The notes: generated by a model from the letters alone, not told the origin. Counted from the first letter of the stretch, positions 823 through 61,728 are shown. The stretch: 64,000 nt of DNA from Candidatus Kaiserbacteria bacterium (GCA_963699165.1 OY969413.1:63506-127505); one strand, 5' to 3'. Program-made: numbers and translations.

Positions 823-1029
823 ATGAAATGGAAAAAGCCGCCGGTTATAAAAATCTACGAGGCGCTCGGCGCCGTTGCCGACGGCCGAATCGAAGTCGAC
901 GGAAACGCGGCCAAGGTGTATTCGTCGAGCGGCCCCCGTGATGGTTCGTGGTATGTGCCACAAATTCGGAAAAGAGAAAATTCATTCAGGAAAGGCGGGG
1001 GAGAGAAGGAGAAGGGGCAAAAAATTTGA
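823..1029 (+). CDS. small hypothetical protein
   Basis: A 68-aa ORF lies directly downstream of the preceding gene. Its 3' end overlaps a direct repeat and support is weak. Confidence 0.25.
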   Translation: MKWKKPPVIKIYEALGAVADGRIEVDGNAAKVYSSSGPRDGSWYVPQIRKRENSFRKGGGEKEKGQKI

Positions 1030-1214
1030 AGGTGGGTTTGAGAGGGGCGTTTTGAATCGGTGAATTAGAGGTTGAGTACAAGGTCGAACCTTGTAAGTAT
1101 TAAAATTCGGCACTTTCCGATTACAAGGTTCGACCTTGTAGCAAGTTCTGGAAGGTCAGACCTTCCAGAACGAAAATTTGAAGGTGGGTTTGGGGGCGAT
1201 TTGAATCGGTGAAT
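1021..1214. promoter_or_regulatory. operator-like palindrome cluster bracketed by ~42-45 bp direct repeats, ~180 bp upstream of dinB
   Basis: Two perfect 19-bp palindromes are present: TACAAGGTCGAACCTTGTA (~1077-1095) and TACAAGGTTCGACCTTGTA (~1122-1140). A 25-bp palindrome TTCTGGAAGGTCAGACCTTCCAGAA lies at ~1146-1170. Near-identical direct repeats AAAATTTGAAGGTGGGTTTG..TTGAATCGGTGAAT flank them at ~1021-1065 and ~1173-1214. Confidence 0.5.
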
Positions 1215-1391
1215 GGGCGATGGTGGGGGAAATAGTGACCACCCCCCATTTTTTGCTAATGAACCAGTATTTGCGCAAAGGACCGCGGGGGTATTTTCTC
1301 GAACCGGCAAATGCAAAGTACAAACCAATCTATCCGGAAAACACGCTCAACATCGAAGCGGTCGTGACTGCCGTCGTGCGCAAATACTAGT

Positions 1392-2699
1392 ATGGCGTGG
1401 GGCTCACTGGGGTCGTATCCGCGAGCCATCCTCCACGTCGACGGGGACGCTTTCTTTGCGTCGTGCGAAGTGGCGAAGAATCCGTCGCTTCGCGGCAAGC
1501 CGGTCATCACGGGGAAAGAGCGCGGGATTGTCTCGGCCGCGTCGTATGAAGCAAAAGCGCGCGGGGTGAAGCGAGGGATGCGTTTGAGCGAGGTGCGGAA
1601 GGTGTGTCCGGACGCGGTGATACTTCCGTCTGACTACGAAACGTACAGCATTTTTTCCGAGCGCATGTACGCGATAGTGCGGAGGTACACGCCCGCGGTT
1701 GAGGAATACAGCATTGATGAATGTTTTGCTGACCTTACGGGGTTGCGCGGCCGTTTGCACATGAGCTATGGGCAAATGGCCGCGAAGATGAAGCACGAGC
1801 TTGATACCGAACTCGGGATGACTTTTTCAATCGGCGTGTCGGCCACGAAGACGCTCGCAAAAATCGGCTCGAAGTGGCAGAAGCCGTCCGGACTCACGAT
1901 GATTCCGCTTCGGGACAGTGCGGCTTTTTTGGCGAAGACGCCGGTCGGCGCGGTGTGGGGTATTGGGCCGAACACGTCTGCTTTGCTCGCAAAATTTGGC
2001 ATACAAACGGCGCTCGACTTCGCAAAGAAGCCGGAAGCGTGGGTGAAGGAGCACGTCGCAAAACCGTACTTCGAAACGTGGCAGGAGCTGAACGGTTTTG
2101 CCGTAAACGAGCTCGATGTCGCGGGCAGAAAAGGGTACCAGTCCATCAGCAAGACCAAAACATTTACGCCGCCGTCGACGAACCCCGCCTTTGTGTTTGC
2201 CCAGCTTTCAAAAAATATCGAGAACGCGTGCATCAAGGCGCGCCGGTGGGACCTCGCGAGCCCCGTGATTTTCTTTTTCCTCAAGACGCAAGAGTTTGCC
2301 TATCACGGCTACGAAATCAAACTCGCGTACCCGACCAACATTCCGCAGGACATTTTGAAAGAAGTGTCGCGCTACTTTCCGAAAGTGTTTAAGAAGGGCA
2401 CGCCGTATCGGGCGACCGGCATCACGCTCATGGGACTCTCGCACACGGGAGAAACACAGCTCGACCTCTTCGGCTCGGTGCAAAAGTCGGAGGCCATCAA
2501 ACACGTCTTTGCGAGCGTCGACAAGGTCTCCGCGAAATACGGGAAGCACGCTGTTTTTCTCGGTTCGAGTTTCGGCGCGATGACGCACGCGGCGCACTTG
2601 GGCGACCGAGGCGACGTGGCAAAACGCGTTTCAACTTTGTTTAAAGGAGAAACGAACCGCCGCCGCTTGGCGATACCGATGCTGGGGGATGTGCGGTAG
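1392..2699 (+). CDS. dinB: Y-family DNA polymerase IV (DinB/UmuC-like)
   Basis: The N-terminal HVDGDAFFASCE motif is typical of Y-family polymerases (UmuC/DinB domain). It is followed by little-finger-like C-terminal region. Confidence 0.85.
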   Translation: MAWGSLGSYPRAILHVDGDAFFASCEVAKNPSLRGKPVITGKERGIVSAASYEAKARGVKRGMRLSEVRKVCPDAVILPSDYETYSIFSERMYAIVRRYTPAVEEYSIDECFADLTGLRGRLHMSYGQMAAKMKHELDTELGMTFSIGVSATKTLAKIGSKWQKPSGLTMIPLRDSAAFLAKTPVGAVWGIGPNTSALLAKFGIQTALDFAKKPEAWVKEHVAKPYFETWQELNGFAVNELDVAGRKGYQSISKTKTFTPPSTNPAFVFAQLSKNIENACIKARRWDLASPVIFFFLKTQEFAYHGYEIKLAYPTNIPQDILKEVSRYFPKVFKKGTPYRATGITLMGLSHTGETQLDLFGSVQKSEAIKHVFASVDKVSAKYGKHAVFLGSSFGAMTHAAHLGDRGDVAKRVSTLFKGETNRRRLAIPMLGDVR

Positions 2700-3415: not shown

Positions 3416-3987
3416 AAACTGCCCCGTTTGCGGCGGGGCAGTTTGAATGTGCTTGGCGTTATGCGAATACTTCGTAGATTGCGCGAATTGCCTCCTCAAG
3501 ATCGTCCTCATCGACTCCGATGGTGATGTTGCGTTCGCTTCCTCCCTGAATAATCAGCCGTACGTTTATGCCGCGCGCCGCGAGAGCGTCTTTGAAAACC
3601 TTGCCAGCGACACCCGGCGTGTGCGACATCGTATTTCCAACGACGCAGATGAGAGACAGGGGAGGTTCGACTTTGATAGTGTCGGGGTTGAGTTTGTTTT
3701 TAAGGCCCGACAGAACGACCTCGAGTTTGCCGTTTAAACTCTCGCTGCTCACCACGAAACTCGCGTCATCGATGCTCGTCGGAATGTGTTCGAGATTTAC
3801 TCCATATTCCAAAAACACATCGCAAGCGTCTCTCAAGAATCCGCTCAATTCGTTCATTGCGAACTTCGACACTGTTAACGCCATGAATCCTTTGCGTCCC
3901 GCGATGCCGGCGATTGTTCCCGGCGTTCTCGGCCGGGCTTTTTCATCTGGTACAATCCACGTGCCTTCGTCGTGGCACCCAAACCCC

Positions 3988-4911
3988 TCAATTCGAACGA
4001 CGGTTTTTTGCGCTCCTCTGAGCGCGTTGTTTCTTTTCCGCAGCATACGCCTCATCTGGCGTGAGTGAACCGAGCACATCCATGAAGCGGCGATTCATCT
4101 TTGCTTCGAGTTTCTGCACAAATCTTTTTGAATACTTTGAAATATCCGAGCTTTTCGGGATGTACCGCCGCAAGTCCTTGTTCAGATTCTCGATTGATGG
4201 CTTCTCCCATGGCGCATGCACATGACAGAAATATATCTTCACCCCAAGCACCTTCTCTAGCCGTTTGTGTTCGAGAAAGAGAATATCGTTGTCGAATGTG
4301 ATGGTCTGCATCTCGGGATACCGCTTTTTCATTCTGCGAAGCGCTCGCTCCACGTTTCGCACTGACACTGGCAGGATCCGCTCCAGCAGGTTTTTGCGCA
4401 CCCTGCGATCCCGCAGACCAAGAATGATGCCTTGACCGCTCTTGCCCGACACGATGAAGTCGCCCTCCATGTGACCCAATCCCCATCGCTTGTTGATTTT
4501 GCTCGGTCGTTTGTCGATCAGGCGCTTGTCGGCAATGTGTGGTTTCGATGGCCGAGAGCGTCGCCTCTTCTTGAATACCTTTGCTCGATGCGACTCGATC
4601 CGTCTGCCATACGGGCTCTTGATATATCGGCGTATAGCCGAGGATGAAGCATATCCGATATCCTTCTCGATCCGCTTCAATCGAAGTGAGATGTTTTCGG
4701 GCGACTGATCGTCGAAGAGATGCGCCTCGATGAACTTCCGGAGCTTCGGGTCGAGAGCAATCATCTTGCCGACCGCTCGGCTGTATTTCCTTCGTACGTA
4801 TGAAATGTGATGCGCATATGCAGCATCATACGGCCGTCCCTTCCTCTTCTTTTGCGTCTCGTACCATATGACACTCTTCGGTCGGTCGAGTGCATCTCCG
4901 ACATCTTGCAA
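3988..4911 (-). CDS. IS30-family DDE transposase
   Basis: The 307-aa protein has a basic N-terminal HTH region and the GHMEGDFI motif, matching the HWEGDLV signature of IS30 transposases. Confidence 0.8.
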   Translation of the reverse strand: MQDVGDALDRPKSVIWYETQKKRKGRPYDAAYAHHISYVRRKYSRAVGKMIALDPKLRKFIEAHLFDDQSPENISLRLKRIEKDIGYASSSAIRRYIKSPYGRRIESHRAKVFKKRRRSRPSKPHIADKRLIDKRPSKINKRWGLGHMEGDFIVSGKSGQGIILGLRDRRVRKNLLERILPVSVRNVERALRRMKKRYPEMQTITFDNDILFLEHKRLEKVLGVKIYFCHVHAPWEKPSIENLNKDLRRYIPKSSDISKYSKRFVQKLEAKMNRRFMDVLGSLTPDEAYAAEKKQRAQRSAKNRRSN

Positions 4912-5022: not shown

Positions 5023-6211
5023 AGACCAGTCGCCCGTCAGGACAGTTCGTGCTTCGCAAATTTACGGGAATGCCGGCCTCCCTCAAAGGAGCCATTGCAA
5101 GCGGATGGAATACTTCCGCTCCGCTGTATGCAAGCTCTCGAATCTCTTTAAAGGTGACTTCGCGAACTTGCTTTGCATGCGGGACTATCCGAGGGGGCGC
5201 GCCGAGAAGGCCCGGGACATCCGTCCAATTCTGATATACGTCCGCGCCTATGAGTGCCGCGACAATCGCACCCGTGAGGTCCGAGCCCCCGCGGGTGAAT
5301 GTTTTAATCGTCCCGTCGGGATTTGCGCCATAGAAACCCGGAATGACGCACTTCGCATCCTTCAAATCGAGAGCGTTCCAGCGCCACCGTGTTTCCTCCA
5401 TGTCGAGCTCGCCGTCTTTGAAGCTGACAAAGTCCACCGCGTCGATGCACTTATACCCAAGCACCTCCGCCATGACGATGGCGTTCAGATACTCGCCTCT
5501 GCTGACGAAATGATCGACGGAACAGTCCGGCTTGAAAGCGAGCCGTCGAAGCTCTTTCAAATCCAAATCGAGCAGATTCGGCGACAGACGCAGACCGGAA
5601 ATGATCTTGCGGTATCGTTTTTCGATGTCAACGAAGATGCTCCTGATTTCGGCTTCCGACAGGCGGCCTCGGTGAATCCTATAGAGCATGTCGGTGACTT
5701 TTTGCCCGTTTTTTCTCAGTTGTCCGGGGGCCGAGACGACTACACATTGGATTTTCCAGTCGTAAACGATTTGACGCACCTTGGCGACTTCTTCGGGTCC
5801 GGCGACCGAGGACCCGCCGAACTTGGCTGCTATCTTAGGCCCGTTCATAGGGACCTCCTTTTAAGGAACGAGAGTAATCTGACTCGAAGGTACCGAAAAA
5901 CACACCTCTCCGCAAGCGCGCTTCACTGACGCCACATGCACCATGCGAAACAATAGGGATTATTTCTAACCATCACGAACATGCTGTACACCATTGCCGC
6001 GATACTCATTGTTCTCTGGCTCCTCGGTCTTGCTACGGCGTATACGCTCGGCGGATTCATTCATATCCTGCTCGTAGTCGCCGTCATCATGATTCTTATT
6101 CGGCTTATACGCGGAGAAAGTCCGGCATAGCGCGCGGAAGACGCGCGTATCACGCTATCTTCAGAGACCTGTCGGTATGATGCGCAGTATTAGCAGTAAT
6201 AGATATCCGGT

Positions 6212-6430
6212 ATGGAAACGTACGAAATGACTTGCACGTGCGGACACGTCATGACGGTCGACGCTTCGAGCCAGTGGGAGGCGGAAGCGAAGATGAAAAA
6301 AATGATGAACGAGCGGGCAGTGCAGAAGCATTGGCAGGAGATGCACGAGGGAAGCGGTCCGGTGCCAAGCGTGAAGGATGTGCACCGCATGATTGAGACG
6401 GAGCTAATTCCTTCGTTCGCCACCGCGTAG
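6212..6430 (+). CDS. small cysteine-containing protein (possible DUF1059-like metal-binding protein)
   Basis: A 72-aa ORF begins ..MTCTCGHVMTVD.. and is followed by a hairpin terminator at ~6437-6468. It is paralogous to the next ORF. Confidence 0.5.
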   Translation: METYEMTCTCGHVMTVDASSQWEAEAKMKKMMNERAVQKHWQEMHEGSGPVPSVKDVHRMIETELIPSFATA

Positions 6431-6436
6431 CGCAAG

Positions 6437-6468
6437 AAAAACCGTTCCGCTTGCGGGACGGTTTTTCT
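6437..6468 (+). terminator. rho-independent terminator-like hairpin
   Basis: Sequence AAAAACCGTTCCGC-TTGC-GGGACGGTTTTT: a GC-rich stem followed by a T-run. Confidence 0.55.
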
Positions 6469-6499
6469 TTCATGCAAATATCAGAGCCATGCGTGTAAA

Positions 6500-6706
6500 A
6501 TGCGCGCTATGAAATTTCTTATGACTTGCGGCGCATGCGGACATCAAATGCAGGGCGACGAAGGCCGCGAGTTGATGAATCGCATCAAGCTGCTGAGCCA
6601 TATCGAAAAATGCCATCCGGAGCGGGTCGCGAGGTTCCGGGAGGCGCTTCGCGCGCACGCCGACAGGCCGATTGCGTCCATCGACACTATCCTCGCGGCC
6701 GCCTAG
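6500..6706 (+). CDS. small cysteine-containing protein, paralog of 6212..6430
   Basis: A 68-aa ORF begins ..MTCGACGHQMQGD.. It shares the CxCGH-M motif and downstream HxxM/H-rich helices with the upstream gene. Confidence 0.5.
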   Translation: MRAMKFLMTCGACGHQMQGDEGRELMNRIKLLSHIEKCHPERVARFREALRAHADRPIASIDTILAAA

Positions 6707-6740
6707 AATGCAAAACCACATACGGTATACTTACCGCAAT

Positions 6741-8834
<2,094 letters not shown>

Positions 8835-14005: not shown

Positions 14006-14104
14006 CATTTTCGAAGACCGGGTCGATAAGCCGAATTCTGTCTCGTCCAGCACCAACTTTGCCATCGTTTGGTTTGTGTCAATCCGGACACAATGACAAA
14101 GTTG

Positions 14105-14470
14105 GTGCTGGAGAGCGACGATTATTTATCTGGGACGCCGATTACTCGACGCCTCAAGCGGCACTCCCTAAAACATGCTTCGCATGTTCGCGAAAGCATA
14201 TTTTAAGACACGGCCTTGCATACGGGTAAGGATTTGTTCGTTGCACCTCTTTAGTCACCTAAAGAGCTCATCCCGCTCGATGGCGGGATGCCCGTGCGCT
14301 TTCGCGTACAAGCGTCTCTGTGAGCACCTCTATCCTTGCGGACGACGGGCGTTACCCGCTACCTTGCTCCTGTCGCATCATTACGATGCGCGGATATGTT
14401 CGGACTTTCCTCGCCGAGCATCTTTAAGGTGCTTGGCGCAATCGTCTGACCCGGTCCTCTCTCATTATAC
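14105..14470 (-). ncRNA. rnpB: RNase P RNA (bacterial type A) candidate
   Basis: The minus-strand RNA contains GAGGAAAGUCCGAAC (P4 / CR-I region), GGUAACGCC, GCGAAAGCGCAC and GCUUGAGG elements in canonical order. A P3-like hairpin GCCAAGCA..UGCUCGGC precedes P4, and a possible P2 pairing is GACGAUU / AAUCGUC. It lies in a ~450-bp non-coding gap. Confidence 0.55.
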
Positions 14471-23534: not shown

Positions 23535-23912
23535 ATGCATGACCTGACGCCCTATAAAGACAAACCGTCTGACGAGTGGCTTTCTGTTACAGAGAAGTTG
23601 ATTAAGGAACATCCATTAGGACCTGAAGCGATGGTCGCAGTAGTAAAGAAATCATGGGATCAGATTTTCACGAGCAAAATCGGTGGAGTTATCCAGATAG
23701 GAGAAGAGATCGCCCTTACCCCTCAAATGATTGGTAATTTTCTGCATGTATTAGTTGCACATAATCTTTCAGAGAGCTCGCCGGAACTATGGCGGATAGA
23801 GGCTGCCGCTGGGGAAAAAGATGTTGTGTACGTGCCGGACGACTACTACTCATTGTACCGACCCCTATTCTTCAGACCACTTCCTAGACGAGTGAAGATA
23901 GTGTACGGGTGA
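23535..23912 (+). pseudogene. hypothetical protein, C-terminally truncated by IS-A copy 1
   Basis: The ORF is real-looking up to ~23853. Its last ~19 codons (..RPLFFRPLPRRVKIVYG) are encoded by the IS-A terminal repeat, and the same tail appears wherever IS-A abuts an ORF. Confidence 0.4.
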
Positions 23913-24696
23913 TGTGCGATTTCGCAAACTCTCTCGGTGCCATCTTGAGTGTTGAGTGTATACGCACGGTGTTGTACCGGTGAATTGTCTGATAGATTTC
24001 AGCAACAAGTTCACCAAGCGTATCGAAGCGATTGGGATCGCCCAGATCAGTTTTGAATTTTCCATAGAACGATTCTTGGTACCCGTTCTCCCACGGACAG
24101 CCCTTTTTTGAGCGAGAGATGCTGATGCCGAAATTGATGAGCATCTCTCGGAAGGATGCGGCATTGTATTCCACTCCGTTGTCGCTGTGAAAGATGGTGG
24201 GACGAGGATGGTTGAGAAGTGCCGCGCACAATGCCTGCGTCACAAGTACGGTTCCACCTCGCGTACCAATGGCGAGCCCAACGACACTTCGAGTGTATAC
24301 GTCCATGGTGGTTGCCACACGAATGTCTTTCCCTTTGAAATACACATGAGTGAAATCAGCGACCCATGCTTGATGCGGATAGGCGGGTACAATCCGCATC
24401 AGGAGATTTGGATACTCCACGGCTTGTTTCCTTGATTTCCTCCACCGTCTTCCTCTTCTTCGATATGCTTTGATACCAAAGAGTCGCATGACTCTTTGAA
24501 CCTTCTTTTTGTTCTCCTTGAGATACAGGGCAACTCTCCGGTATCCATACGAAGGAAACTCTCGAAGGACTTCTTCAATACGGCATTTGAGTGCCCAGTC
24601 TTTGTCAGGCTTCTTCTTTTGATACCAGAAGGTGGAACGAGCTATACCAAGAGTACGCGCTGTTGTGCGCGTACCAATCGGAGATTCTTTGCTCAC
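23884..24696 (-). CDS. IS3-family transposase OrfB (DDE integrase core)
   Basis: 270-aa rve domain (..WVADFTHVY..HSDNGVEY..CPWENGYQESFYGKFK..). Confidence 0.85.
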   Translation of the reverse strand: MSKESPIGTRTTARTLGIARSTFWYQKKKPDKDWALKCRIEEVLREFPSYGYRRVALYLKENKKKVQRVMRLFGIKAYRRRGRRWRKSRKQAVEYPNLLMRIVPAYPHQAWVADFTHVYFKGKDIRVATTMDVYTRSVVGLAIGTRGGTVLVTQALCAALLNHPRPTIFHSDNGVEYNAASFREMLINFGISISRSKKGCPWENGYQESFYGKFKTDLGDPNRFDTLGELVAEIYQTIHRYNTVRIHSTLKMAPREFAKSHITRTLSSLV

Positions 24697-29012: not shown

Positions 29013-29795
29013 CTATGCTCTGCTCAGAGCAACAAACTCTCTTGGCGCCATACGCAGTGCTGAGTGAATGCGAGCGGTATTGTGATAGTGGATGGTGAGG
29101 TAGATCTCAGCCACTAATTCACCTAACGTGTCGAATCGGTTCGGATCACCCAGGTCAATCTTGAACCCTTTGTAGAAGGACTCTTGGTAGCCATTCTCCC
29201 AGGGACATCCAGGACGAGACATAGATTGCTGTATGCCGATCGTTGCCACGAGCATCGCATAATCCTTTGAGGCATACTCGCTGCCTTGATCCGAATGGAT
29301 GACACGAGGTGGCGATTTGTGATGCAATGCAGAGAGAAGTGCATTCATGATGAGTTGCGTGCTGTGGGTGGTGAGGACTGACACACCGACAATCTCTCGG
29401 GAATAGACGTCAAGGATGGTAGCGACGTATACCCAGTACCCGTGGTACTTGAGGTAGGTGAAGTCACTCGCCCAGATGTCACCGTCCTGCTCGGGAGTTT
29501 GATGGAGCAAGAAGTTCGGGAATATACTGTCTTTTGTCTTTAGCACAAATCGCTTCTTTGCGGTCCTCCGATATGGTTTGATACCGAACAATTTCATCAC
29601 ACGCAGAATGCGCTTTTTGTTGACTTTGAGGTAGAGTGCCAACCGTTTGTGCCCATAGGCGGGATGGCTATGCAGAGCTTCTTCGATGAGTTGCTTTGTG
29701 TGCCAATCCCTCCGAGCCTGCTTCGGCTCGTAGTACAGCGTACTGCGAGCAATACCGCTCTCGCGTGCAAGAGCACTCTTGTTTTCTCTCATCAA
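29013..29795 (-). CDS. IS3-family transposase OrfB (IS-B)
   Basis: 260-aa rve integrase core (..HSDQGSEYAS..CPWENGYQESFYKGFK..). Confidence 0.85.
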   Translation of the reverse strand: MMRENKSALARESGIARSTLYYEPKQARRDWHTKQLIEEALHSHPAYGHKRLALYLKVNKKRILRVMKLFGIKPYRRTAKKRFVLKTKDSIFPNFLLHQTPEQDGDIWASDFTYLKYHGYWVYVATILDVYSREIVGVSVLTTHSTQLIMNALLSALHHKSPPRVIHSDQGSEYASKDYAMLVATIGIQQSMSRPGCPWENGYQESFYKGFKIDLGDPNRFDTLGELVAEIYLTIHYHNTARIHSALRMAPREFVALSRA

Positions 29796-31010: not shown

Positions 31011-31793
31011 CTATGCTCTGCTCAGAGCAACAAACTCTCTTGGCGCCATACGCAGTGCTGAGTGAATGCGAGCGGTATTGTGATAGTGGATGGTGAGGTA
31101 GATCTCAGCCACTAATTCACCTAACGTGTCGAATCGGTTCGGATCACCCAGGTCAATCTTGAACCCTTTGTAGAAGGACTCTTGGTAGCCATTCTCCCAG
31201 GGACATCCAGGACGAGACATAGATTGCTGTATGCCGATCGTTGCCACGAGCATCGCATAATCCTTTGAGGCATACTCGCTGCCTTGATCCGAATGGATGA
31301 CACGAGGTGGCGATTTGTGATGTAGCGCAGAGAGAAGTGCATTCATGATGAGTTGCGTGCTGTGGGTGGTGAGGACTGACACACCGACAATCTCTCGGGA
31401 ATAGACGTCAAGGATGGTAGCGACGTATACCCAGTACCCGTGGTACTTGAGGTAGGTGAAGTCACTCGCCCAGATGTCACCGTCCTGCTCGGGAGTTTGA
31501 TGGAGCAAGAAGTTCGGGAATATACTGTCTTTTGTCTTTAGCACAAATCGCTTCTTTGCGGTCCTCCGATATGGTTTGATACCGAACAATTTCATCACAC
31601 GCAGAATGCGCTTTTTGTTGACTTTGAGGTAGAGTGCCAACCGTTTGTGCCCATAGGCGGGATGGCTATGCAGAGCTTCTTCGATGAGTTGCTTTGTGTG
31701 CCAATCCCTCCGAGCCTGCTTCGGCTCGTAGTACAGCGTACTGCGAGCAATACCGCTCTCGCGTGCAAGAGCACTCTTGTTTTCTCTCATCAA
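31011..31793 (-). CDS. IS3-family transposase OrfB (IS-B copy 2)
   Basis: Identical to 29013..29795. Confidence 0.85.
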   Translation of the reverse strand: MMRENKSALARESGIARSTLYYEPKQARRDWHTKQLIEEALHSHPAYGHKRLALYLKVNKKRILRVMKLFGIKPYRRTAKKRFVLKTKDSIFPNFLLHQTPEQDGDIWASDFTYLKYHGYWVYVATILDVYSREIVGVSVLTTHSTQLIMNALLSALHHKSPPRVIHSDQGSEYASKDYAMLVATIGIQQSMSRPGCPWENGYQESFYKGFKIDLGDPNRFDTLGELVAEIYLTIHYHNTARIHSALRMAPREFVALSRA

Positions 31794-33246: not shown

Positions 33247-33504
33247 ATGAAGCAATACCGCATCGCTCCTGAGGTGAAGGAACAAATCATTAATCGAATC
33301 AAGAACGATGGTGTCACTGTCGCCCAAGCGGCCAAAGAGCATGGTATCCACGAGACCACCATCTATGGCTGGCTTGGTGCGAAAGTGCAAGACGGTACCG
33401 CATCTGTTCTTGAGATTGCGAGACTTCGAAAAGAGAATGACGAACTCCTTCGTCTTGTTGGACTCATGACGCTCAAGCTGTCTGAAACCCAAAAAAAGAA
33501 GTGA
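33247..33504 (+). CDS. IS3-family transposase OrfA (IS-A copy 2)
   Basis: Identical to 24693..24950. Confidence 0.85.
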   Translation: MKQYRIAPEVKEQIINRIKNDGVTVAQAAKEHGIHETTIYGWLGAKVQDGTASVLEIARLRKENDELLRLVGLMTLKLSETQKKK

Positions 33505-34313
33505 GCAAAGAATCTCCGATTGGTACGCGCACAACAGCGCGTACTCTTGGTATAGCTCGTTCCACCTTCTGGTATCAAAAGAAGAAGCCTGACAAAGACT
33601 GGGCACTCAAATGCCGTATTGAAGAAGTCCTTCGAGAGTTTCCTTCGTATGGATACCGGAGAGTTGCCCTGTATCTCAAGGAGAACAAAAAGAAGGTTCA
33701 AAGAGTCATGCGACTCTTTGGTATCAAAGCATATCGAAGAAGAGGAAGACGGTGGAGGAAATCAAGGAAACAAGCCGTGGAGTATCCAAATCTCCTGATG
33801 CGGATTGTACCCGCCTATCCGCATCAAGCATGGGTCGCTGATTTCACTCATGTGTATTTCAAAGGGAAAGACATTCGTGTGGCAACCACCATGGACGTAT
33901 ACACTCGAAGTGTCGTTGGGCTCGCCATTGGTACGCGAGGTGGAACCGTACTTGTGACGCAGGCATTGTGCGCGGCACTTCTCAACCATCCTCGTCCCAC
34001 CATCTTTCACAGCGACAACGGAGTGGAATACAATGCCGCATCCTTCCGAGAGATGCTCATCAATTTCGGCATCAGCATCTCTCGCTCAAAAAAGGGCTGT
34101 CCGTGGGAGAACGGGTACCAAGAATCGTTCTATGGAAAATTCAAAACTGATCTGGGCGATCCCAATCGCTTCGATACGCTTGGTGAACTTGTTGCTGAAA
34201 TCTATCAGACAATTCACCGGTACAACACCGTGCGTATACACTCAACACTCAAGATGGCACCGAGAGAGTTTGCGAAATCGCACATCACCCGTACACTATC
34301 TTCACTCGTCTAG
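33501..34313 (+). CDS. IS3-family transposase OrfB (IS-A copy 2)
   Basis: Identical to 23884..24696. Confidence 0.85.
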   Translation: MSKESPIGTRTTARTLGIARSTFWYQKKKPDKDWALKCRIEEVLREFPSYGYRRVALYLKENKKKVQRVMRLFGIKAYRRRGRRWRKSRKQAVEYPNLLMRIVPAYPHQAWVADFTHVYFKGKDIRVATTMDVYTRSVVGLAIGTRGGTVLVTQALCAALLNHPRPTIFHSDNGVEYNAASFREMLINFGISISRSKKGCPWENGYQESFYGKFKTDLGDPNRFDTLGELVAEIYQTIHRYNTVRIHSTLKMAPREFAKSHITRTLSSLV

Positions 34314-36083: not shown

Positions 36084-36495
36084 GGTCGTTTGTTTTAGGG
36101 TGATTAAGATACGGTTCGACAAGCCGCTTGGTTTCGGGTTTCAGTGTTCCGAACACTTCGAAGAAGATATTTTCATCTTCATCACGAGCGATGGCGAAGG
36201 CGGACTCGAAGGCGCGCTGACGATAATCGGGATGCTTATTTTTCAACCAGAATATCGTTGCCGTGAGATTGCCGTTTTTGATGCCGGAGAGTATCTGACT
36301 CTCGGCGGCATCGTTCATGAGCGCCGTGCCTTCGGCGAGCGCGTCATCAACGAACTTCGCGAATTCCGAATCTTCTTTCTTCCACCTGTACAGGCTCGCG
36401 CGACTCATGCCGGTTTTCTGACATGCGACTTCAATGATCGGCGTTTTGCGTAATTGTTCAAGCAACAATTCTTTGGTACGAATAGTCTTTTTCAT
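36076..36495 (-). CDS. phage terminase small subunit-like HTH DNA-binding protein
   Basis: 139 aa with an N-terminal HTH (..KTGMSRASLYRWKKEDSEF..) immediately upstream of terL. Confidence 0.5.
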   Translation of the reverse strand: MKKTIRTKELLLEQLRKTPIIEVACQKTGMSRASLYRWKKEDSEFAKFVDDALAEGTALMNDAAESQILSGIKNGNLTATIFWLKNKHPDYRQRAFESAFAIARDEDENIFFEVFGTLKPETKRLVEPYLNHPKTNDHG

Positions 36496-37274
36496 ATTTG
36501 TTTTGCTTTAAGGTTGGTACAGTGCTCCCAGCGAGAAATCGCTGTGAGGCAATATTCGAGATCAATTTCGACCGCGAAGCATCGACGCTTCGTTTGCTCG
36601 CACGCTAACAGCGTGGTACCGCTGCCAAGAAATCCGTCGTATACCACATCGCCGATTTCGCTTGAGTTGAGAATCAAACGACGAATAAGTCCGATGGGTT
36701 TGGTTGTCGGATGAAATTTGCTTTTGACAGGACGCGGATAGAACAAAACCGACTTATCTTTTGAGTGACGGAATATATGCGTGCCATGCCAGCCGTAAAG
36801 GATCAATTCATGTTGGGGTGCGTAATCGAGGCGACCGATAACCGCTTGCGATTTCACCCACACAAGAAGCTGCGCGACCTTGAATCCAGCGTCTAACATT
36901 CCTTCGCGAAGCGACCACACCATTTTGTCTGCATTGAACACATACGCGGCGTTTTTTCGGGCGAGATAAGGAGCGATTGTTTCAAGCCATGCGCGGTTGA
37001 ACGCCCGATATGATTCATCGGATTGTAGTTCGTCGTTCGCAACAATTTTATCTTTTGAGAGTTTTGAGAATCCGCGTTTAGATTCCACTGCCGAGACGGC
37101 ATACGGTACGTCACAACATACGAGATTTATATGGATATTACCTATAAGCCTCTCCAGCAGTTTTTTGTCACGTGCGTCGCCGTATGCGATGCGGTGATCG
37201 CCAAGTTGCCAGATAGTGCCAGGCTTAATTGAGTTTGCGGGCTTTGATTCCAGTTGCGTTTTCATACCGTTCAA
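36492..37274 (-). CDS. DNA methyltransferase (N6_N4_Mtase family, phage-type)
   Basis: It has a DVPY (DPPY-like) motif and the C-terminal SAM-binding motif VVYDGFLGSGTTLLACEQTKRRCFAVEID. Confidence 0.8.
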   Translation of the reverse strand: MNGMKTQLESKPANSIKPGTIWQLGDHRIAYGDARDKKLLERLIGNIHINLVCCDVPYAVSAVESKRGFSKLSKDKIVANDELQSDESYRAFNRAWLETIAPYLARKNAAYVFNADKMVWSLREGMLDAGFKVAQLLVWVKSQAVIGRLDYAPQHELILYGWHGTHIFRHSKDKSVLFYPRPVKSKFHPTTKPIGLIRRLILNSSEIGDVVYDGFLGSGTTLLACEQTKRRCFAVEIDLEYCLTAISRWEHCTNLKAKQI

Positions 37275-45809: not shown

Positions 45810-45846
45810 GCGCTTAGTGTACCGCGGAGTGGTTCAAACCTCTACA

Positions 45847-45889
45847 ACCCGCGCCTGTGAAGGTCAGACCTTCACAGGCGCGGGTTGAC
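45847..45889. promoter_or_regulatory. 43-bp near-perfect palindrome in a divergent promoter region
   Basis: CAACCCGCGCCTGTGAAGGTCAGACCTTCACAGGCGCGGGTTG has the same GAAGGTCAGACCTTC core as ~1150-1166. A related site lies at ~46797-46820. Confidence 0.55.
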
Positions 45890-46065
45890 AAGCTACATCT
45901 AGCAGTTGTATTGTATAAATAGCAAGAACGTTGAGATACATAGCTGTTTCGTCACAGCAGAAAGTGGCATAGTATCTGGGCCATTTCCTGCTGTGGCGAA
46001 TCGCCATCAGTCCCTTAACTCACGGACAGTGAGACACTCATGAGCACCCAGCTCAAGGAGATACC

Positions 46066-46683
46066 ATGAAATACGGCAACCTTACGCTCGGCCAAATCGA
46101 GGCGGGAATCAACAAACTCGGCATCGCACTCAGTATCCCCGGTGAAGAAGCATTTATGCGACTTCTCCGAGACCAGCTGGTGATTTCCGAAGCGGCTGCG
46201 AAGAAGCTTCTCGAACGCCTCCCCGCAACCATCGCTGTTCCGGCCATGACGCAATTCATTGCCGCGGACAACTTCGTCGTCGATACGTCGGCAAGGGCGA
46301 AGGTTAAGATCAGCGGCCTCGGCGACAACCTCAAGAAGCACTTCCTGAAGAAAATCGAGAGCTACGAAGTCGCCGCCGAAAACCTCGCCGTCAACAAGCT
46401 GCTCGAATTCGCCTACGATCCCGCCATCATCACCGCTCTCGGCGGCGAACCGAAGGTGGAGATCACGCTCGGCCAGTTCTTTGCGGTCTTCGCGAAGCAA
46501 CCGAACGGCGAAGCAGGTACGCTCCTGACGAACGGATACGCCAACGTCGGCTACATCCCCGACATCAATGGCGTTCTGGGGGCGGTCTACGGCTACTGGT
46601 GCGTCGGCGGCTGGTTCTTCGAGGCGGGCCCATTCGTTCACCGGTACAGGTGGATCGACGGCCTTCAGTTCCTCTCTCGCTGA
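46066..46683 (+). CDS. hypothetical protein
   Basis: 205-aa ORF with protein-like composition and a good RBS context (GGAGATACC ATG). Confidence 0.5.
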   Translation: MKYGNLTLGQIEAGINKLGIALSIPGEEAFMRLLRDQLVISEAAAKKLLERLPATIAVPAMTQFIAADNFVVDTSARAKVKISGLGDNLKKHFLKKIESYEVAAENLAVNKLLEFAYDPAIITALGGEPKVEITLGQFFAVFAKQPNGEAGTLLTNGYANVGYIPDINGVLGAVYGYWCVGGWFFEAGPFVHRYRWIDGLQFLSR

Positions 46684-46829
46684 TTCTTAATGCCTCAGGG
46701 CATTTGAATCAGACTCTTTGATCCTCCGAATCTTTCCGCGCATTCGTTTGCGTTGCAGAGGTTCGGAGGGTTTTGTTTTATACTGAACGATGGGGAAGTC
46801 CCACCTGTGAAGGTCTGACCTCCACAATG

Positions 46830-51537: not shown

Positions 51538-52563
51538 TCAAAGATTTCGGCTTCGGTTTGTATCTGCGCCGAGGGTGATTGCCACCTTGGTTTTAGGGAT
51601 AAGCGCCGCGAGCGTGTGCGCGTTGCCGTGCGAGAGCAGTCCTCGGTACGATGCGAGTGTAGCCTCCTCCGGTTCTCCTTGGAGCGCCTTGAGCATCCTT
51701 CGCTTGGTGCTGGTGCGCAGCACGTCGTGATCGGGGAAATGCACCCAGCCGAGAAAGTCGATGCCTGACGCGAGGGTGGAGATGGAGACCTTGTTCGGGT
51801 GCAGCTCGAGCTTGAGCGTATCGCGCAGGTATTCGCGTATGTGCGGCAGTAGCGCTTCAAGCTCGATTCGATCCATTGAGAGCACTACGAAGTCGTCGGC
51901 ATAACGGAGGTAGTAGCGGGCTTTGAGGCGATGCTTCACCCATTGGTCGAACTCGTTCATGTACACGTTCACGAGGAGCTGGCTGGTGAGGTTGCCGAGC
52001 GGGAGACCCTTCCCCGGCGTGCCGGAGCGGAAGCTCTCGATTACGTTTTGGAGCAGGGCGAGCGTGCGCTCGTCGTTGACGTGATTGCGCAAAATGCCGA
52101 GGAGCACTTCGTGATCGATGGAGGCGAAGAACTTGCGCACGTCGCACTTGAGTACCCACAGCGTCTTGGTGTGATTCTTGCTCGCTTTGTACGCATAGCG
52201 CTTGAAGGCGGCTATGGCGCGATGGGTACCCTTGTCGAGGCGGCAGGAGTACGAGTCGGGAATGAAGGTGCGATTGAAATAGGGATAGAGAACTCGATAG
52301 ATGGCGTGATGCGTGAGGCGGTCGCGCACTCGTGCCTTGTGAATGTCGCGGGGCTTGGGGTCACTAATCCTGAAATGCGAATACGGGCCGTGGCGATAGG
52401 TGCCGGACGCCAGCTCGTCATGGAGTTGCGAGATGTTTTCAACAAGGTTGTACTCGAAAGCCTGCACATCTTTCTTCTGCCGCTTGCCGCGTATAAATTC
52501 TTTCCATGCGTCGAGCAGATTATTGGGAGAAATGATACTTTCGTATGTATGAGTGATTTCCAT
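51538..52563 (-). CDS. diversity-generating retroelement (DGR) reverse transcriptase
   Basis: The RT domain carries the YADDFVV (YxDD) box and the DGR-specific LPLGNLTSQLLVNVYMNEFD motif. The N-terminus resembles DGR RTs (..RGKRQKKDVQAFEYNLVENISQLHDELASGTYRHGPYSHFRISDPKPRDI..). The start is taken at MEITHTYE; the longest ORF to 52779 adds a GC-rich low-complexity leader. Confidence 0.85.
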   Translation of the reverse strand: MEITHTYESIISPNNLLDAWKEFIRGKRQKKDVQAFEYNLVENISQLHDELASGTYRHGPYSHFRISDPKPRDIHKARVRDRLTHHAIYRVLYPYFNRTFIPDSYSCRLDKGTHRAIAAFKRYAYKASKNHTKTLWVLKCDVRKFFASIDHEVLLGILRNHVNDERTLALLQNVIESFRSGTPGKGLPLGNLTSQLLVNVYMNEFDQWVKHRLKARYYLRYADDFVVLSMDRIELEALLPHIREYLRDTLKLELHPNKVSISTLASGIDFLGWVHFPDHDVLRTSTKRRMLKALQGEPEEATLASYRGLLSHGNAHTLAALIPKTKVAITLGADTNRSRNL

Positions 52564-52604
52564 TCTTTTAGTTCCCCCCCCCCGCAATCGCCCCTGACAA
52601 GCTC

Positions 52605-52964
52605 GTGCCGGTGGTGTTGAAACTAAAGGAAGCATACCTCGCGTGGCAGCAGGCGCTTCCGCATGTCGCCAAGGCGCGGCGGCAGACCGTGGGGGCGCGG
52701 ATCGATGGGGCGCTCCTCGACACGCTTGAGCACGCCTTTCGTGCCGGGTATGCCTCGGGCACTCGCAAGCTGGAGGCACTTGAGTATTCGATCGAGAAAC
52801 TCGATGCCGCGAGGTTCTTCCTGCTTGTGGGCTGGGAAAGCGCCGCGCTCACGAACGCGCAGTACATGCGCATAGCAGGACTCTTAGTGGATGCGAGTAA
52901 GATGCTCGTCGGGTGGAAGGCGTATATGGAAAAGAAAACTCCCGCGAATAGCGAGAGAAAGTAA
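52605..52964 (+). CDS. putative Avd-like four-helix-bundle accessory protein, encoded on the strand opposite to RT/TR
   Basis: 119 aa with a GTG start. Its helical heptad pattern (LKEAYLAWQQA.., ..LEALEYSIEKLDAARFFLLVGWESAALTNAQYMRIAGLLVDASKMLVGWKAYM) resembles DGR Avd / 23S-IVS four-helix-bundle proteins. The same-strand ORF over this region (52568..53062) is Ser-rich and not protein-like. Confidence 0.4.
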   Translation: MPVVLKLKEAYLAWQQALPHVAKARRQTVGARIDGALLDTLEHAFRAGYASGTRKLEALEYSIEKLDAARFFLLVGWESAALTNAQYMRIAGLLVDASKMLVGWKAYMEKKTPANSERK

Positions 52965-55095: not shown

Positions 55096-55353
55096 ATGAA
55101 GCAATACCGCATCGCTCCTGAGGTGAAGGAACAAATCATTAATCGAATCAAGAACGATGGTGTCACTGTCGCCCAAGCGGCCAAAGAGCATGGTATCCAC
55201 GAGACCACCATCTATGGCTGGCTTGGTGCGAAAGTGCAAGACGGTACCGCATCTGTTCTTGAGATTGCGAGACTTCGAAAAGAGAATGACGAACTCCTTC
55301 GTCTTGTTGGACTCATGACGCTCAAGCTGTCTGAAACCCAAAAAAAGAAGTGA
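55096..55353 (+). CDS. IS3-family transposase OrfA (IS-A copy 3)
   Basis: Identical to the other IS-A orfA copies. Confidence 0.85.
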   Translation: MKQYRIAPEVKEQIINRIKNDGVTVAQAAKEHGIHETTIYGWLGAKVQDGTASVLEIARLRKENDELLRLVGLMTLKLSETQKKK

Positions 55354-56162
55354 GCAAAGAATCTCCGATTGGTACGCGCACAACAGCGCGTACTCTTGGT
55401 ATAGCTCGTTCCACCTTCTGGTATCAAAAGAAGAAGCCTGACAAAGACTGGGCACTCAAATGCCGTATTGAAGAAGTCCTTCGAGAGTTTCCTTCGTATG
55501 GATACCGGAGAGTTGCCCTGTATCTCAAGGAGAACAAAAAGAAGGTTCAAAGAGTCATGCGACTCTTTGGTATCAAAGCATATCGAAGAAGAGGAAGACG
55601 GTGGAGGAAATCAAGGAAACAAGCCGTGGAGTATCCAAATCTCCTGATGCGGATTGTACCCGCCTATCCGCATCAAGCATGGGTCGCTGATTTCACTCAT
55701 GTGTATTTCAAAGGGAAAGACATTCGTGTGGCAACCACCATGGACGTATACACTCGAAGTGTCGTTGGGCTCGCCATTGGTACGCGAGGTGGAACCGTAC
55801 TTGTGACGCAGGCATTGTGCGCGGCACTTCTCAACCATCCTCGTCCCACCATCTTTCACAGCGACAACGGAGTGGAATACAATGCCGCATCCTTCCGAGA
55901 GATGCTCATCAATTTCGGCATCAGCATCTCTCGCTCAAAAAAGGGCTGTCCGTGGGAGAACGGGTACCAAGAATCGTTCTATGGAAAATTCAAAACTGAT
56001 CTGGGCGATCCCAATCGCTTCGATACGCTTGGTGAACTTGTTGCTGAAATCTATCAGACAATTCACCGGTACAACACCGTGCGTATACACTCAACACTCA
56101 AGATGGCACCGAGAGAGTTTGCGAAATCGCACATCACCCGTACACTATCTTCACTCGTCTAG
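55350..56162 (+). CDS. IS3-family transposase OrfB (IS-A copy 3)
   Basis: Identical to the other IS-A orfB copies. Confidence 0.85.
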   Translation: MSKESPIGTRTTARTLGIARSTFWYQKKKPDKDWALKCRIEEVLREFPSYGYRRVALYLKENKKKVQRVMRLFGIKAYRRRGRRWRKSRKQAVEYPNLLMRIVPAYPHQAWVADFTHVYFKGKDIRVATTMDVYTRSVVGLAIGTRGGTVLVTQALCAALLNHPRPTIFHSDNGVEYNAASFREMLINFGISISRSKKGCPWENGYQESFYGKFKTDLGDPNRFDTLGELVAEIYQTIHRYNTVRIHSTLKMAPREFAKSHITRTLSSLV

Positions 56163-56786: not shown

Positions 56787-57599
56787 CTAGACGAGTGAAG
56801 ATAGTGTACGGGTGATGTGCGATTTCGCAAACTCTCTCGGTGCCATCTTGAGTGTTGAGTGTATACGCACGGTGTTGTACCGGTGAATTGTCTGATAGAT
56901 TTCAGCAACAAGTTCACCAAGCGTATCGAAGCGATTGGGATCGCCCAGATCAGTTTTGAATTTTCCATAGAACGATTCTTGGTACCCGTTCTCCCACGGA
57001 CAGCCCTTTTTTGAGCGAGAGATGCTGATGCCGAAATTGATGAGCATCTCTCGGAAGGATGCGGCATTGTATTCCACTCCGTTGTCGCTGTGAAAGATGG
57101 TGGGACGAGGATGGTTGAGAAGTGCCGCGCACAATGCCTGCGTCACAAGTACGGTTCCACCTCGCGTACCAATGGCGAGCCCAACGACACTTCGAGTGTA
57201 TACGTCCATGGTGGTTGCCACACGAATGTCTTTCCCTTTGAAATACACATGAGTGAAATCAGCGACCCATGCTTGATGCGGATAGGCGGGTACAATCCGC
57301 ATCAGGAGATTTGGATACTCCACGGCTTGTTTCCTTGATTTCCTCCACCGTCTTCCTCTTCTTCGATATGCTTTGATACCAAAGAGTCGCATGACTCTTT
57401 GAACCTTCTTTTTGTTCTCCTTGAGATACAGGGCAACTCTCCGGTATCCATACGAAGGAAACTCTCGAAGGACTTCTTCAATACGGCATTTGAGTGCCCA
57501 GTCTTTGTCAGGCTTCTTCTTTTGATACCAGAAGGTGGAACGAGCTATACCAAGAGTACGCGCTGTTGTGCGCGTACCAATCGGAGATTCTTTGCTCAC
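56787..57599 (-). CDS. IS3-family transposase OrfB (IS-A copy 4)
   Basis: Identical to the other copies. Confidence 0.85.
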   Translation of the reverse strand: MSKESPIGTRTTARTLGIARSTFWYQKKKPDKDWALKCRIEEVLREFPSYGYRRVALYLKENKKKVQRVMRLFGIKAYRRRGRRWRKSRKQAVEYPNLLMRIVPAYPHQAWVADFTHVYFKGKDIRVATTMDVYTRSVVGLAIGTRGGTVLVTQALCAALLNHPRPTIFHSDNGVEYNAASFREMLINFGISISRSKKGCPWENGYQESFYGKFKTDLGDPNRFDTLGELVAEIYQTIHRYNTVRIHSTLKMAPREFAKSHITRTLSSLV

Positions 57600-61482: not shown

Positions 61483-61606
61483 GACCCCACGGGGAATCGG
61501 TCAAGCGCTCGTTCGTCGCCGTCGCTCCTCACTCCGCCTGACCACGCTCGCGCGACCCGACCTGCTGGCCGGGTGCCCGCGCTCGCCTTCGATTCCCCGT
61601 GGGGTC
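61483..61606. repeat. 17-bp inverted pair of the tRNA-Glu 3' end (GACCCCACGGGGAATCG) flanking a 90-bp GC-rich spacer, plus a 20-bp direct repeat GGAATCGGKCAAGCGCTCGT
   Basis: The direct copy lies at ~61483-61499 and the inverted copy at ~61590-61606, both identical to the tRNA-Glu gene 3' end at ~61658-61674. GGAATCGGGCAAGCGCTCGT occurs at ~61454 and GGAATCGGTCAAGCGCTCGT at ~61492. Confidence 0.6.
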
Positions 61607-61656
61607 TACAAAAATATAATCGCCCGATGCTCATCGCATCGTTCTCATTATTTTTG

Positions 61657-61728
61657 TGACCCCACGGGGAATCGAACCCCGATTTACGCCGTGAAAGGGC
61701 GCTGTCCTAACCGTTAGACGATGGGGCC
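61657..61728 (-). tRNA. tRNA-Glu (anticodon TTC)
   Basis: The minus strand reads GGCCCCATCGTCTAACGGTTAGGACAGCGCCCTTTCACGGCGTAAATCGGGGTTCGATTCCCCGTGGGGTCA. No CCA is encoded. Confidence 0.8.

Follow-up and report, generated by a model that had tools for sequence, protein, structure and literature searches.

What are the paired perfect palindromes that lie upstream of a dinB gene in a Candidatus Kaiserbacteria bacterium? They are found at 1021-1214 of a stretch of 64,000 nucleotides (GCA_963699165.1, OY969413.1:63506-127505; the whole stretch is called the window below, and positions are counted from its first letter). The source organism is a metagenome-assembled genome (MAG) of Minisyncoccia (Patescibacteria, or candidate phyla radiation, CPR), and a second assembly, GCA_049279115.1, is identical across the region. 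A first-pass annotation had seen in the palindromes a candidate operator of the SOS response, in a lineage taken to have no defined LexA box. We arrive at another answer: with a probability of roughly 80%, they are hairpin repeats of the repetitive extragenic palindromic (REP) type, including a REP doublet forming a hairpin (REPIN), and they sit in the rearrangement scar of a second lexA-dinB operon rather than forming an SOS operator. The pairing of REPs or REPINs with a REP-associated tyrosine transposase (RAYT) is a system of known kind; its Patescibacteria lineage is new, and we infer its mobility.

As a description of the sequence, the annotation largely stands. Reading of the sequence and a repeat finder agree on two perfect 19-bp palindromes, TACAAGGTCGAACCTTGTA at 1077-1095 and TACAAGGTTCGACCTTGTA at 1122-1140, which differ only in the central triplet, as had been noted, and this amounts to their being exact reverse complements of each other. 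The gap between them is 26 nt (45 nt from start to start) and not the 27 first given. Extended to 20 nt, the units TACAAGGTCGAACCTTGTAA (1077-1096) and TTACAAGGTTCGACCTTGTA (1121-1140) are, according to the repeat finder, 100% complementary and 24 nt apart, and make up the left and right arms of an inverted, REPIN-like doublet, 1077-1140. The third palindrome that had been reported, GTTCTGGAAGGTCAGACCTTCCAGAAC at 1145-1171, proved perfect over 27 nt; its variant core, GAAGGTCAGACCTTC, has G and not C before AAGGT. The bracketing direct repeats, put at about 44 bp, are likewise present, with 45 nt at 1021-1065 and 42 nt at 1173-1214, about 91% identity and a 3-nt indel, the second copy abutting with its right end the start of a lexA remnant. 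No strand is assigned to any of these repeats. As single-stranded DNA, 1066-1172 folds with -37 kcal/mol (z = -11). Across the 64-kb window, TACAAGGTNNNACCTTGTA has two matches with at most three mismatches, where 0.10 are expected, and the core AAGGTNNNACCTT has five with at most one mismatch, versus 1.08 expected (one of 100 shuffles reaches five). Neither a further copy of the direct repeat nor a second copy of the 194-bp unit that the two repeats bound was found in the window, the compared loci or a metagenome scan; in that scan a 20-mer common to both direct repeats gave nine matches, all of them chance hits in unrelated coding DNA encoding KFEGGF. When 926-1270 was searched by blastn against all compared loci, matches were confined to the palindromes.

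The palindromes are thus the part of the cluster with relatives elsewhere, and these relatives are numerous. Scanning one genome per species for two CAAGGT-N3-ACCTTG sites 15-45 nt apart, we recovered at least 119 loci, often several per genome, of which about 86 of those listed belong to Patescibacteria of many classes; by our own estimate, about 0.1 such loci would be expected by chance. The counts of sites and genes given below for this family refer to the loci listed, which are cited, where necessary, by a number with the prefix L. Outside the pairs by which the loci had been ascertained, there are 41 copies of AAGGT-N3-ACCTT in 592 kb, or about one per 14 kb, and no other palindrome of the form 5-N3-5 is as common there. 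Copies of one genome agree in their central triplet and foot bases, both of which differ between lineages, and the stems extend past the core with perfectly complementary, lineage-specific bases, up to 15 on each side. In the CPR loci, 40 pairs with the same triplet are inverted and 37 direct, with 11 of other kinds; since the members of a pair share their triplet in either orientation, they appear to be copies by descent and not independently evolved binding sites. By crude open reading frame (ORF) calls the gene context is convergent in 19 cases, tandem in 32 and divergent in seven, often a few bases past a stop codon, and 18 sites fall inside ORFs when longest-ORF calls alone are used. Where real gene calls exist, 13 of 17 sites fall outside genes; of the other four, three are within the RAYT gene and one extends over its stop codon. 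Tandem duplications of a palindrome together with its flank are frequent among the other loci.

The gene that accompanies these sites encodes a transposase. An all-against-all BLASTP comparison of the ORFs of the CPR loci yielded one dominant family, with 21 members in 21 loci, and 19 of the 21 lie within 300 bp of a site, as compared with 27.5% of all ORFs. The proteins, of about 220 aa, have an N-terminal YHxYNRG motif, a conserved HUH motif (MPNHFHLL) and a conserved tyrosine motif (YIHLNP), and match the Pfam family PF01797 Y1_Tnp (IS200-like) above its cut-off. Sites are positioned 7-36 nt 5' of the start and 4-37 nt 3' of the stop of these genes, and although the 21 transposases are just 24-64% identical, all are flanked by the same CAAGGT-N3-ACCTTG core. 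Since these loci had been chosen by their palindromes, four more (L130, L131, L141 and L142) were fetched by protein homology alone. In all four, a site lies about 28-32 nt before the ATG and another overlaps the stop codon or starts at most 4 nt after it, and further extragenic copies are present as well. In their arms, the units of the window, TACAAGGT-N3-ACCTTGTA, agree with those that flank the RAYT genes of L033, L130 and L131. The abundance of the core in related Patescibacteria, its extragenic location and its flanking of a transposase gene there therefore point to a REP/REPIN-type element, and the TACAAGGT-N3-ACCTTGTA palindromes of the window are most probably an inverted, REPIN-like doublet, with a neighbouring singlet, of the CAAGGT-N3-ACCTTG family. 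That singlet, the palindrome at 1145-1171, is probably of REP type too, with its membership of the RAYT-associated family less certain.

In about half of the RAYT-like genes the REP core also occurs in frame, about 157-169 nt after the start, where CAA GGT NNN ACC TTG reads as Q-G-x-T-L, in the variable linker before the HUH motif. The carriers are the genes at L130 5556, L131 10158, L142 10158, L033 4223, L062 278, L027 1738 and L059 6342. The in-frame core may serve self-recognition or autoregulation, or may be an in-frame insertion of a REP.

Several observations weigh against a REP/RAYT assignment, or at least against a classical one. The best NCBIfam match of the transposase family is the REP-associated tyrosine transposase, with 47-51 bits, which is under the equivalog cut-off of 80. 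When the 21 RAYT-like proteins were compared with the 64-kb window by tblastn no homologue appeared, and the source genome's own RAYT is not among the best 120 matches to the RAYT of L033. In the source genome, 64 kb contain five units at three places, and another 13 kb contain none. No RAYT was seen in the compared loci beside palindromes of the G type, which in the window are those at 1145-1171, 45845-45887 and 46803-46828. The conservation of the CAAGGT-N3-ACCTTG core is in part an ascertainment effect of the search pattern. Doublet spacers are unrelated inside a genome in the CPR loci, unlike those of classical REPINs, which copy as a unit. Finally, a GTAG or CGTC tag at the foot of the hairpin is not conserved: 27 of 476 feet carry GTAG, less often seen there than the tetranucleotides GTAA, GGAA and GTAC.

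Comparison with characterized systems points the same two ways. Like the REP/REPIN-RAYT systems of Escherichia coli (REPs and bacterial interspersed mosaic elements, BIMEs) and Pseudomonas fluorescens (REPINs; Bertels & Rainey 2011, PMC3116915; Bertels et al. 2017, PMC5581495), the family consists of short hairpin palindromes that are dispersed and mostly extragenic, comes as singlets and inverted doublets, stands on both sides of an apparently single-copy, vertically inherited Y1/HUH transposase gene, and has a sequence variant that is uniform per genome and different between lineages. It differs in its hosts, which are Patescibacteria with genomes of about 1 Mb; in that the top of the hairpin (CAAGGT-N3-ACCTTG) is conserved and the foot variable; in having neither a conserved GTAG/CGTC tag nor conserved doublet spacers; in direct doublets being about as common as inverted ones; in its modest copy number, about one per 14 kb; and in a transposase of about 220 aa with YHxYNRG that scores below the NCBIfam RAYT cut-off. 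The GTAG/CGTC superfamilies of palindromes (Di Nocera et al. 2013, PMC3733652) are also repeats of 20-40 bp in many copies, but their defining terminal tetranucleotide is not conserved in the Patescibacteria family. REPs are usually described as species-specific (PMC6006769); in contrast, the core described here is unusually conserved across divergent transposases, in part as an effect of the search pattern. The result is a well-supported REP/RAYT-type family in organisms that have very small genomes and little spare DNA. In the searchable literature we found no description of these sequences and no link between RAYTs or REPs and Patescibacteria, which is absence of evidence only.

One may consider, instead of REPs, that the palindromes are the ends or solo remnants of an active insertion sequence (IS) of the IS200/IS605 type, or its derivatives in the form of miniature inverted-repeat transposable elements (MITEs). 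The protein indeed belongs with IS200/IS605 TnpA (PMC6006769) by its PF01797 fold family, its HUH and tyrosine motifs and the hairpins beside its gene, its RAYT score in NCBIfam falls under the cut-off, and on one contig there is a second Y1_Tnp gene, a weak one. Many of the RAYT homologues, moreover, are on contigs of only 1-3 kb, as is seen with repeats, so that these elements probably fragment CPR assemblies. Nevertheless, the same methyltransferase - RAYT - gyrA neighbourhood is common to three genomes (L130, L142 and an ENA contig), at 71-82% protein identity, and this synteny of an apparently single-copy gene fits vertical inheritance, few genomes being sampled; single copy together with vertical inheritance is the criterion that separates RAYTs from IS200 (PMC5581495). 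The gene is also flanked on either side by the same palindrome and not by left and right ends that differ, and hairpins occur dispersed without the gene, in far more copies than the gene itself; such features, too, serve in PMC5581495 to tell RAYTs from IS200. We therefore regard an IS200/IS605-type origin as unlikely.

A second alternative leaves the transposase association as something secondary and takes the palindromes for sites of another abundant dimeric DNA-binding protein, such as a nucleoid or partition protein or a global regulator. One would then understand why the core is conserved across RAYTs that are just 24-64% identical, why the copies are randomly oriented, and why the copy at 45845-45887 abuts a -35-like TTGACA. 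Such a protein would have no need, on the other hand, of complementary, lineage-specific stem extensions reaching up to 15 nt beyond the core, nor of a central triplet that is uniform throughout a genome, and the tight two-sided flanking of a Y1 gene in all four loci fetched without bias is a REP/RAYT signature. This explanation is very unlikely in our view.

Equally hard to sustain is the proposal that the palindromes are not mobile DNA and act at the RNA level, as factor-independent terminators or as hairpins that stabilise 3' ends. It draws on the great stability of the hairpins and on the many copies that lie 3-30 nt past stop codons and fill convergent intergenic regions. E. coli REPs are known to have such RNA-level functions secondarily. 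Roles in mRNA turnover and termination are mentioned in two papers (PMC3479197, PMC3733652). However, the stems are not enriched for T-tracts (six or more T in 10 nt follow at 14 of 229 sites, which equals background composition), a scan of 700-1500 for promoters and terminators gave no terminator at 1077-1171, and the genome of the window has ordinary terminators of unique sequence with A/T tracts. Independent selection for hairpins, furthermore, would account neither for an identical core and triplet per genome nor for the link to a transposase. Searching 600-1700 against Rfam at permissive E-values gave weak matches to miRNA models alone (17-24 bits versus gathering scores of 50-211), which are due to the hairpins, and at gathering scores the whole window contained RNase P RNA and tRNAs and nothing else.

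Having argued that the palindromes are REPs, we now turn to why they lie before dinB. The ORF to their left, 823-1029 (+), is the N-terminal remnant of a PF27709 (UCP014422) gene, as seen from its Pfam label and tblastn. Homology is clear over the first 37-45 codons or so (to about 931-957) and weak to about 996, beyond which the sequence is unrelated until the stop; PF27709 homologues placed on the window by tblastn cover 820-957 and 823-996. Full-length members of the family have about 145-150 aa (e.g. L003) and go on with KxYxVxYD...MSNDN...GYPAIA, a stretch absent from the ORF of the window. To the right, 1220-1390 (+) holds the last 56 codons of a lexA gene, supported by BLASTP, blastn and tblastn: it matches residues 132-187 of a LexA/S24 protein from Saccharibacteria that is encoded ahead of a dinB homologue (L046; BLASTP E = 1e-11), and tblastn places there residues 149-189 of the LexA of L125, a locus of the same genome, at 95% identity. 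This remnant is without the winged helix-turn-helix DNA-binding domain, the cleavage site and the catalytic serine of GDSM. Its stop lies one base before the ATG of dinB (1392-2699, +), an intact paralogue encoding a Y-family polymerase (Pfam IMS, 3.9e-46, and IMS_C), whose protein is 91% identical to P0006 of the same genome and which is under purifying selection (dN/dS 0.037, dS about 1.4). The cluster thus does lie upstream of a Y-family polymerase gene, at a measured distance of 178-371 bp where about 180-300 bp had been given. The block of direct repeats and palindromes, 1021-1214, is nearly everything that lies between the two gene stumps, the left one ending at about 996 and the right one beginning at about 1220. 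We also considered that 823-1029 and 1220-1390 might be the halves of one split gene, and rejected the idea because the two ORFs are of different families, PF27709 and LexA.

An intact version of the operon exists in the same genome. L125 (on contig JBAPNL010000116), which was located via a DinB protein search, has the operon at its positions 5394-7308, with a full-length lexA whose stop is one base before dinB. Window positions 1266-2692 align by blastn with 5875-7301 of L125 at 82.5% identity without gaps, so that DNA homology is firm from 1266. The lexA tails differ at 14 nucleotides and at one amino acid, and such a small number of amino-acid changes suggests that the lexA of the second operon was translated for most of its history and that its truncation may be comparatively recent. 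In all four relatives compared (L126, L127, L128 and L129), a full-length lexA likewise stands directly 5' of dinB. Every intact lexA promoter that we compared has a dyad of the GAAC-N4-GTTC type between -35 and -10: the promoter reads TTGACT-GGTGAACCATAGTTCACC-TATACT in L125 and TTGACA-GGTGAACCGTGGTTCACC-TATACT in L129, and the box is TAGAACGTTCGTTCTA in L046 and TAGTACGTTCGTACTA in L126 and L127. A comparative study of the SOS network in Patescibacteria also exists, listed as reference 9 in PMC8565304 (Sanchez-Osuna, Barbe & Erill 2017). Since intact operons show boxes and such a study has been made, it was mistaken to suppose that this lineage lacks a defined LexA box. A motif search did agree with the first-pass annotation in finding neither GAAC-N4-GTTC nor the E. 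coli-type CTGT-N8-ACAG at the cluster or near dinB; the box would be missing from the window copy because the promoter that bore it was lost. In sequence and in position alike, the cluster differs from the Gram-positive-type box that occupies the lexA promoters of the source genome and its relatives, and in 700-1500 the promoter scan gave no sigma-70-like site.

It is scarcely credible, therefore, that the palindromes are operators through which LexA or another SOS repressor controls dinB: perfect dyads do lie upstream of a Y-family polymerase gene, and two such doublets are also found between the lexA and dinB genes of the Saccharibacteria locus L046, but the real LexA boxes are of another type and lie between -35 and -10 of lexA, the cluster occupies a junction of two truncated genes without a promoter-like site, the sites number about one per 14 kb, often at gene 3' ends, between convergent genes and around transposase genes rather than SOS genes, and the other sites of the window adjoin genes that are not SOS genes (a DHH-family gene, a gene of unknown function and a methyltransferase gene). 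The exact motif is confined to this one spot in the 64-kb window, an outcome that the annotation itself had named as speaking for a remnant of a mobile element and not for a regulon. Its fallback, a small MITE-like insertion, fared better in part: the palindromes are indeed repeats of the mobile-element type, and like MITEs such as Correia and RUP elements the cluster is a small non-coding unit with inverted repeats, of a kind able to land near genes and alter their expression. It is, in contrast, without the combination of a terminal inverted repeat and a short target duplication, the 45-bp direct repeats being far too long for the latter, and no second copy of the whole unit turned up in our searches.

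Taking the palindromes as REPs, one can propose a history for the locus. By analogy with characterized REP/RAYT systems, single-stranded DNA would fold into the hairpins, and a RAYT would recognise them, cut and re-join the DNA and so spread copies into extragenic DNA. In a second, diverged lexA-dinB operon, a rearrangement would have taken away the promoter, the LexA box and the 5'-most three quarters of lexA, and in the same event the PF27709 gene would have lost its 3' part. The REP doublet and singlet would now fill the junction, and a partial tandem duplication of about 152 bp may have given rise to the 45/42-bp direct repeats. Judging from sequence, the dinB paralogue of the window is likely no longer under direct LexA control, and any transcription of it would come from upstream genes on the + strand, reading through the very stable hairpins. 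The palindromes are accordingly unsuitable for defining a LexA box of Patescibacteria, the real box being visible in the intact paralogous operon, and the window offers a concrete case of a dinB paralogue without its lexA and operator, which is relevant to the regulation of SOS mutagenesis in these bacteria.

A broader scenario is tentative and, on balance, doubtful. The RAYT-REP system of Patescibacteria may be old and vertically inherited, with the top of the hairpin held constant while the transposases diverged to 24-64% identity; the in-frame Q-G-x-T-L may hint at self-recognition or autoregulation; and the REP cluster of the window may mark, and might even have mediated, the loss of lexA that left a LexA-independent error-prone polymerase. 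If this were true, REP-associated rearrangement would be a route by which damage-inducible mutagenesis is rewired in ultra-small genomes.

Some further features concern the genes of the two operons and their relatives. A 15-nt inverted repeat (AGTATTTGCGCA / TGCGCAAATACT) at 1263-1277 and 1377-1391 brackets the last 40 lexA codons before dinB and is present in both paralogues (5872-5886 and 5986-6000 in L125); it could be a structure for the coupled translation of dinB, or a coincidence of YLRK and RKY codons. In L125, the ATG of lexA lies 6 nt after the -10 element, so the lexA mRNA would be nearly leaderless, and a gene of the phage-integrase family (7417-8208) follows dinB. In the Saccharibacteria locus L046, 586 bp (3513-4100) separate lexA and dinB; in this gap, a perfect REP doublet (4031-4091) directly follows the stop of lexA, and an imperfect doublet of the G type lies at about 3565-3615, some 50-100 nt before the start of dinB. 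The PF27709 gene of L003 (4001-4483) has an in-frame TGA after codon 81, past which the conserved sequence resumes in frame, and this contig probably uses genetic code 25 (TGA = Gly).

The other palindromes of the window are of the G type, whose core is rare in the other compared loci. One is a perfect 43-nt palindrome at 45845-45887 with the core TGTGAAGGTCAGACCTTCACA at 45859, in an intergenic region; the other, CCTGTGAAGGTCTGACCTCCACA at 46803-46828, is an imperfect copy of the unit, with its core at 46809, between convergent genes (no strand is assigned to either). The right arm of the former abuts the promoter-like TTGACA-N18-TATTGT upstream of the ORF 46066-46683. This ORF is one of a large and conserved family of unknown function (1587 representatives at E <= 1e-3). 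As it is flanked by G-type palindromes, it was considered as the gene of their transposase; neither Pfam nor NCBIfam gave a match for it, and it does not encode a Y1 transposase. Its presumed 5' leader contains a 21-nt inverted repeat (45948-46000, 86% complementary, with an 11-nt loop) and may be structured.

Outside CPR, families with the CAAGGT-N3-ACCTTG core were found in one Gammaproteobacteria MAG (L055, L080, L083, L097 and L122), where the units adjoin a DnaA-box-like TGTGGATAA, in Nostocaceae/Rivularia (L024, L070, L072, L088 and L091) and in Polyangiaceae (L021 and L115). The matches in Polyangiaceae, and those in Bacteroidota, are tandem arrays with a period of about 37-42 nt. These may all be unrelated families caught by the search pattern.

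The window also has other repeated and mobile sequences. Two sets of ORFs recur, one of 260 aa (29013-29795, 31011-31793 and 36492-37274) and one of 270 aa (23884-24696, 33501-34313, 55350-56162 and 56787-57599), and the one scanned ORF of each set has an rve integrase-core domain, as in IS3-type transposases; relative to its size of about 1 Mb, the genome is rich in IS copies. Another IS3-type pair stands beside a PMT gene in L001. The ORF 51538-52779 (-), of 413 aa, has a reverse-transcriptase domain (RVT_1, 2.6e-24). At 61588-61676 there is a 26-nt inverted repeat (88% complementary), one arm of which overlaps the 3' end of a tRNA-Glu gene (61656-61728); this partial inverted copy of the tRNA end may be an old integration site. 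Lastly, 14011-14457 (-) encodes a bacterial RNase P RNA of class A (122.5 bits), which, having 447 nt against the 367 positions of the model, carries insertions.

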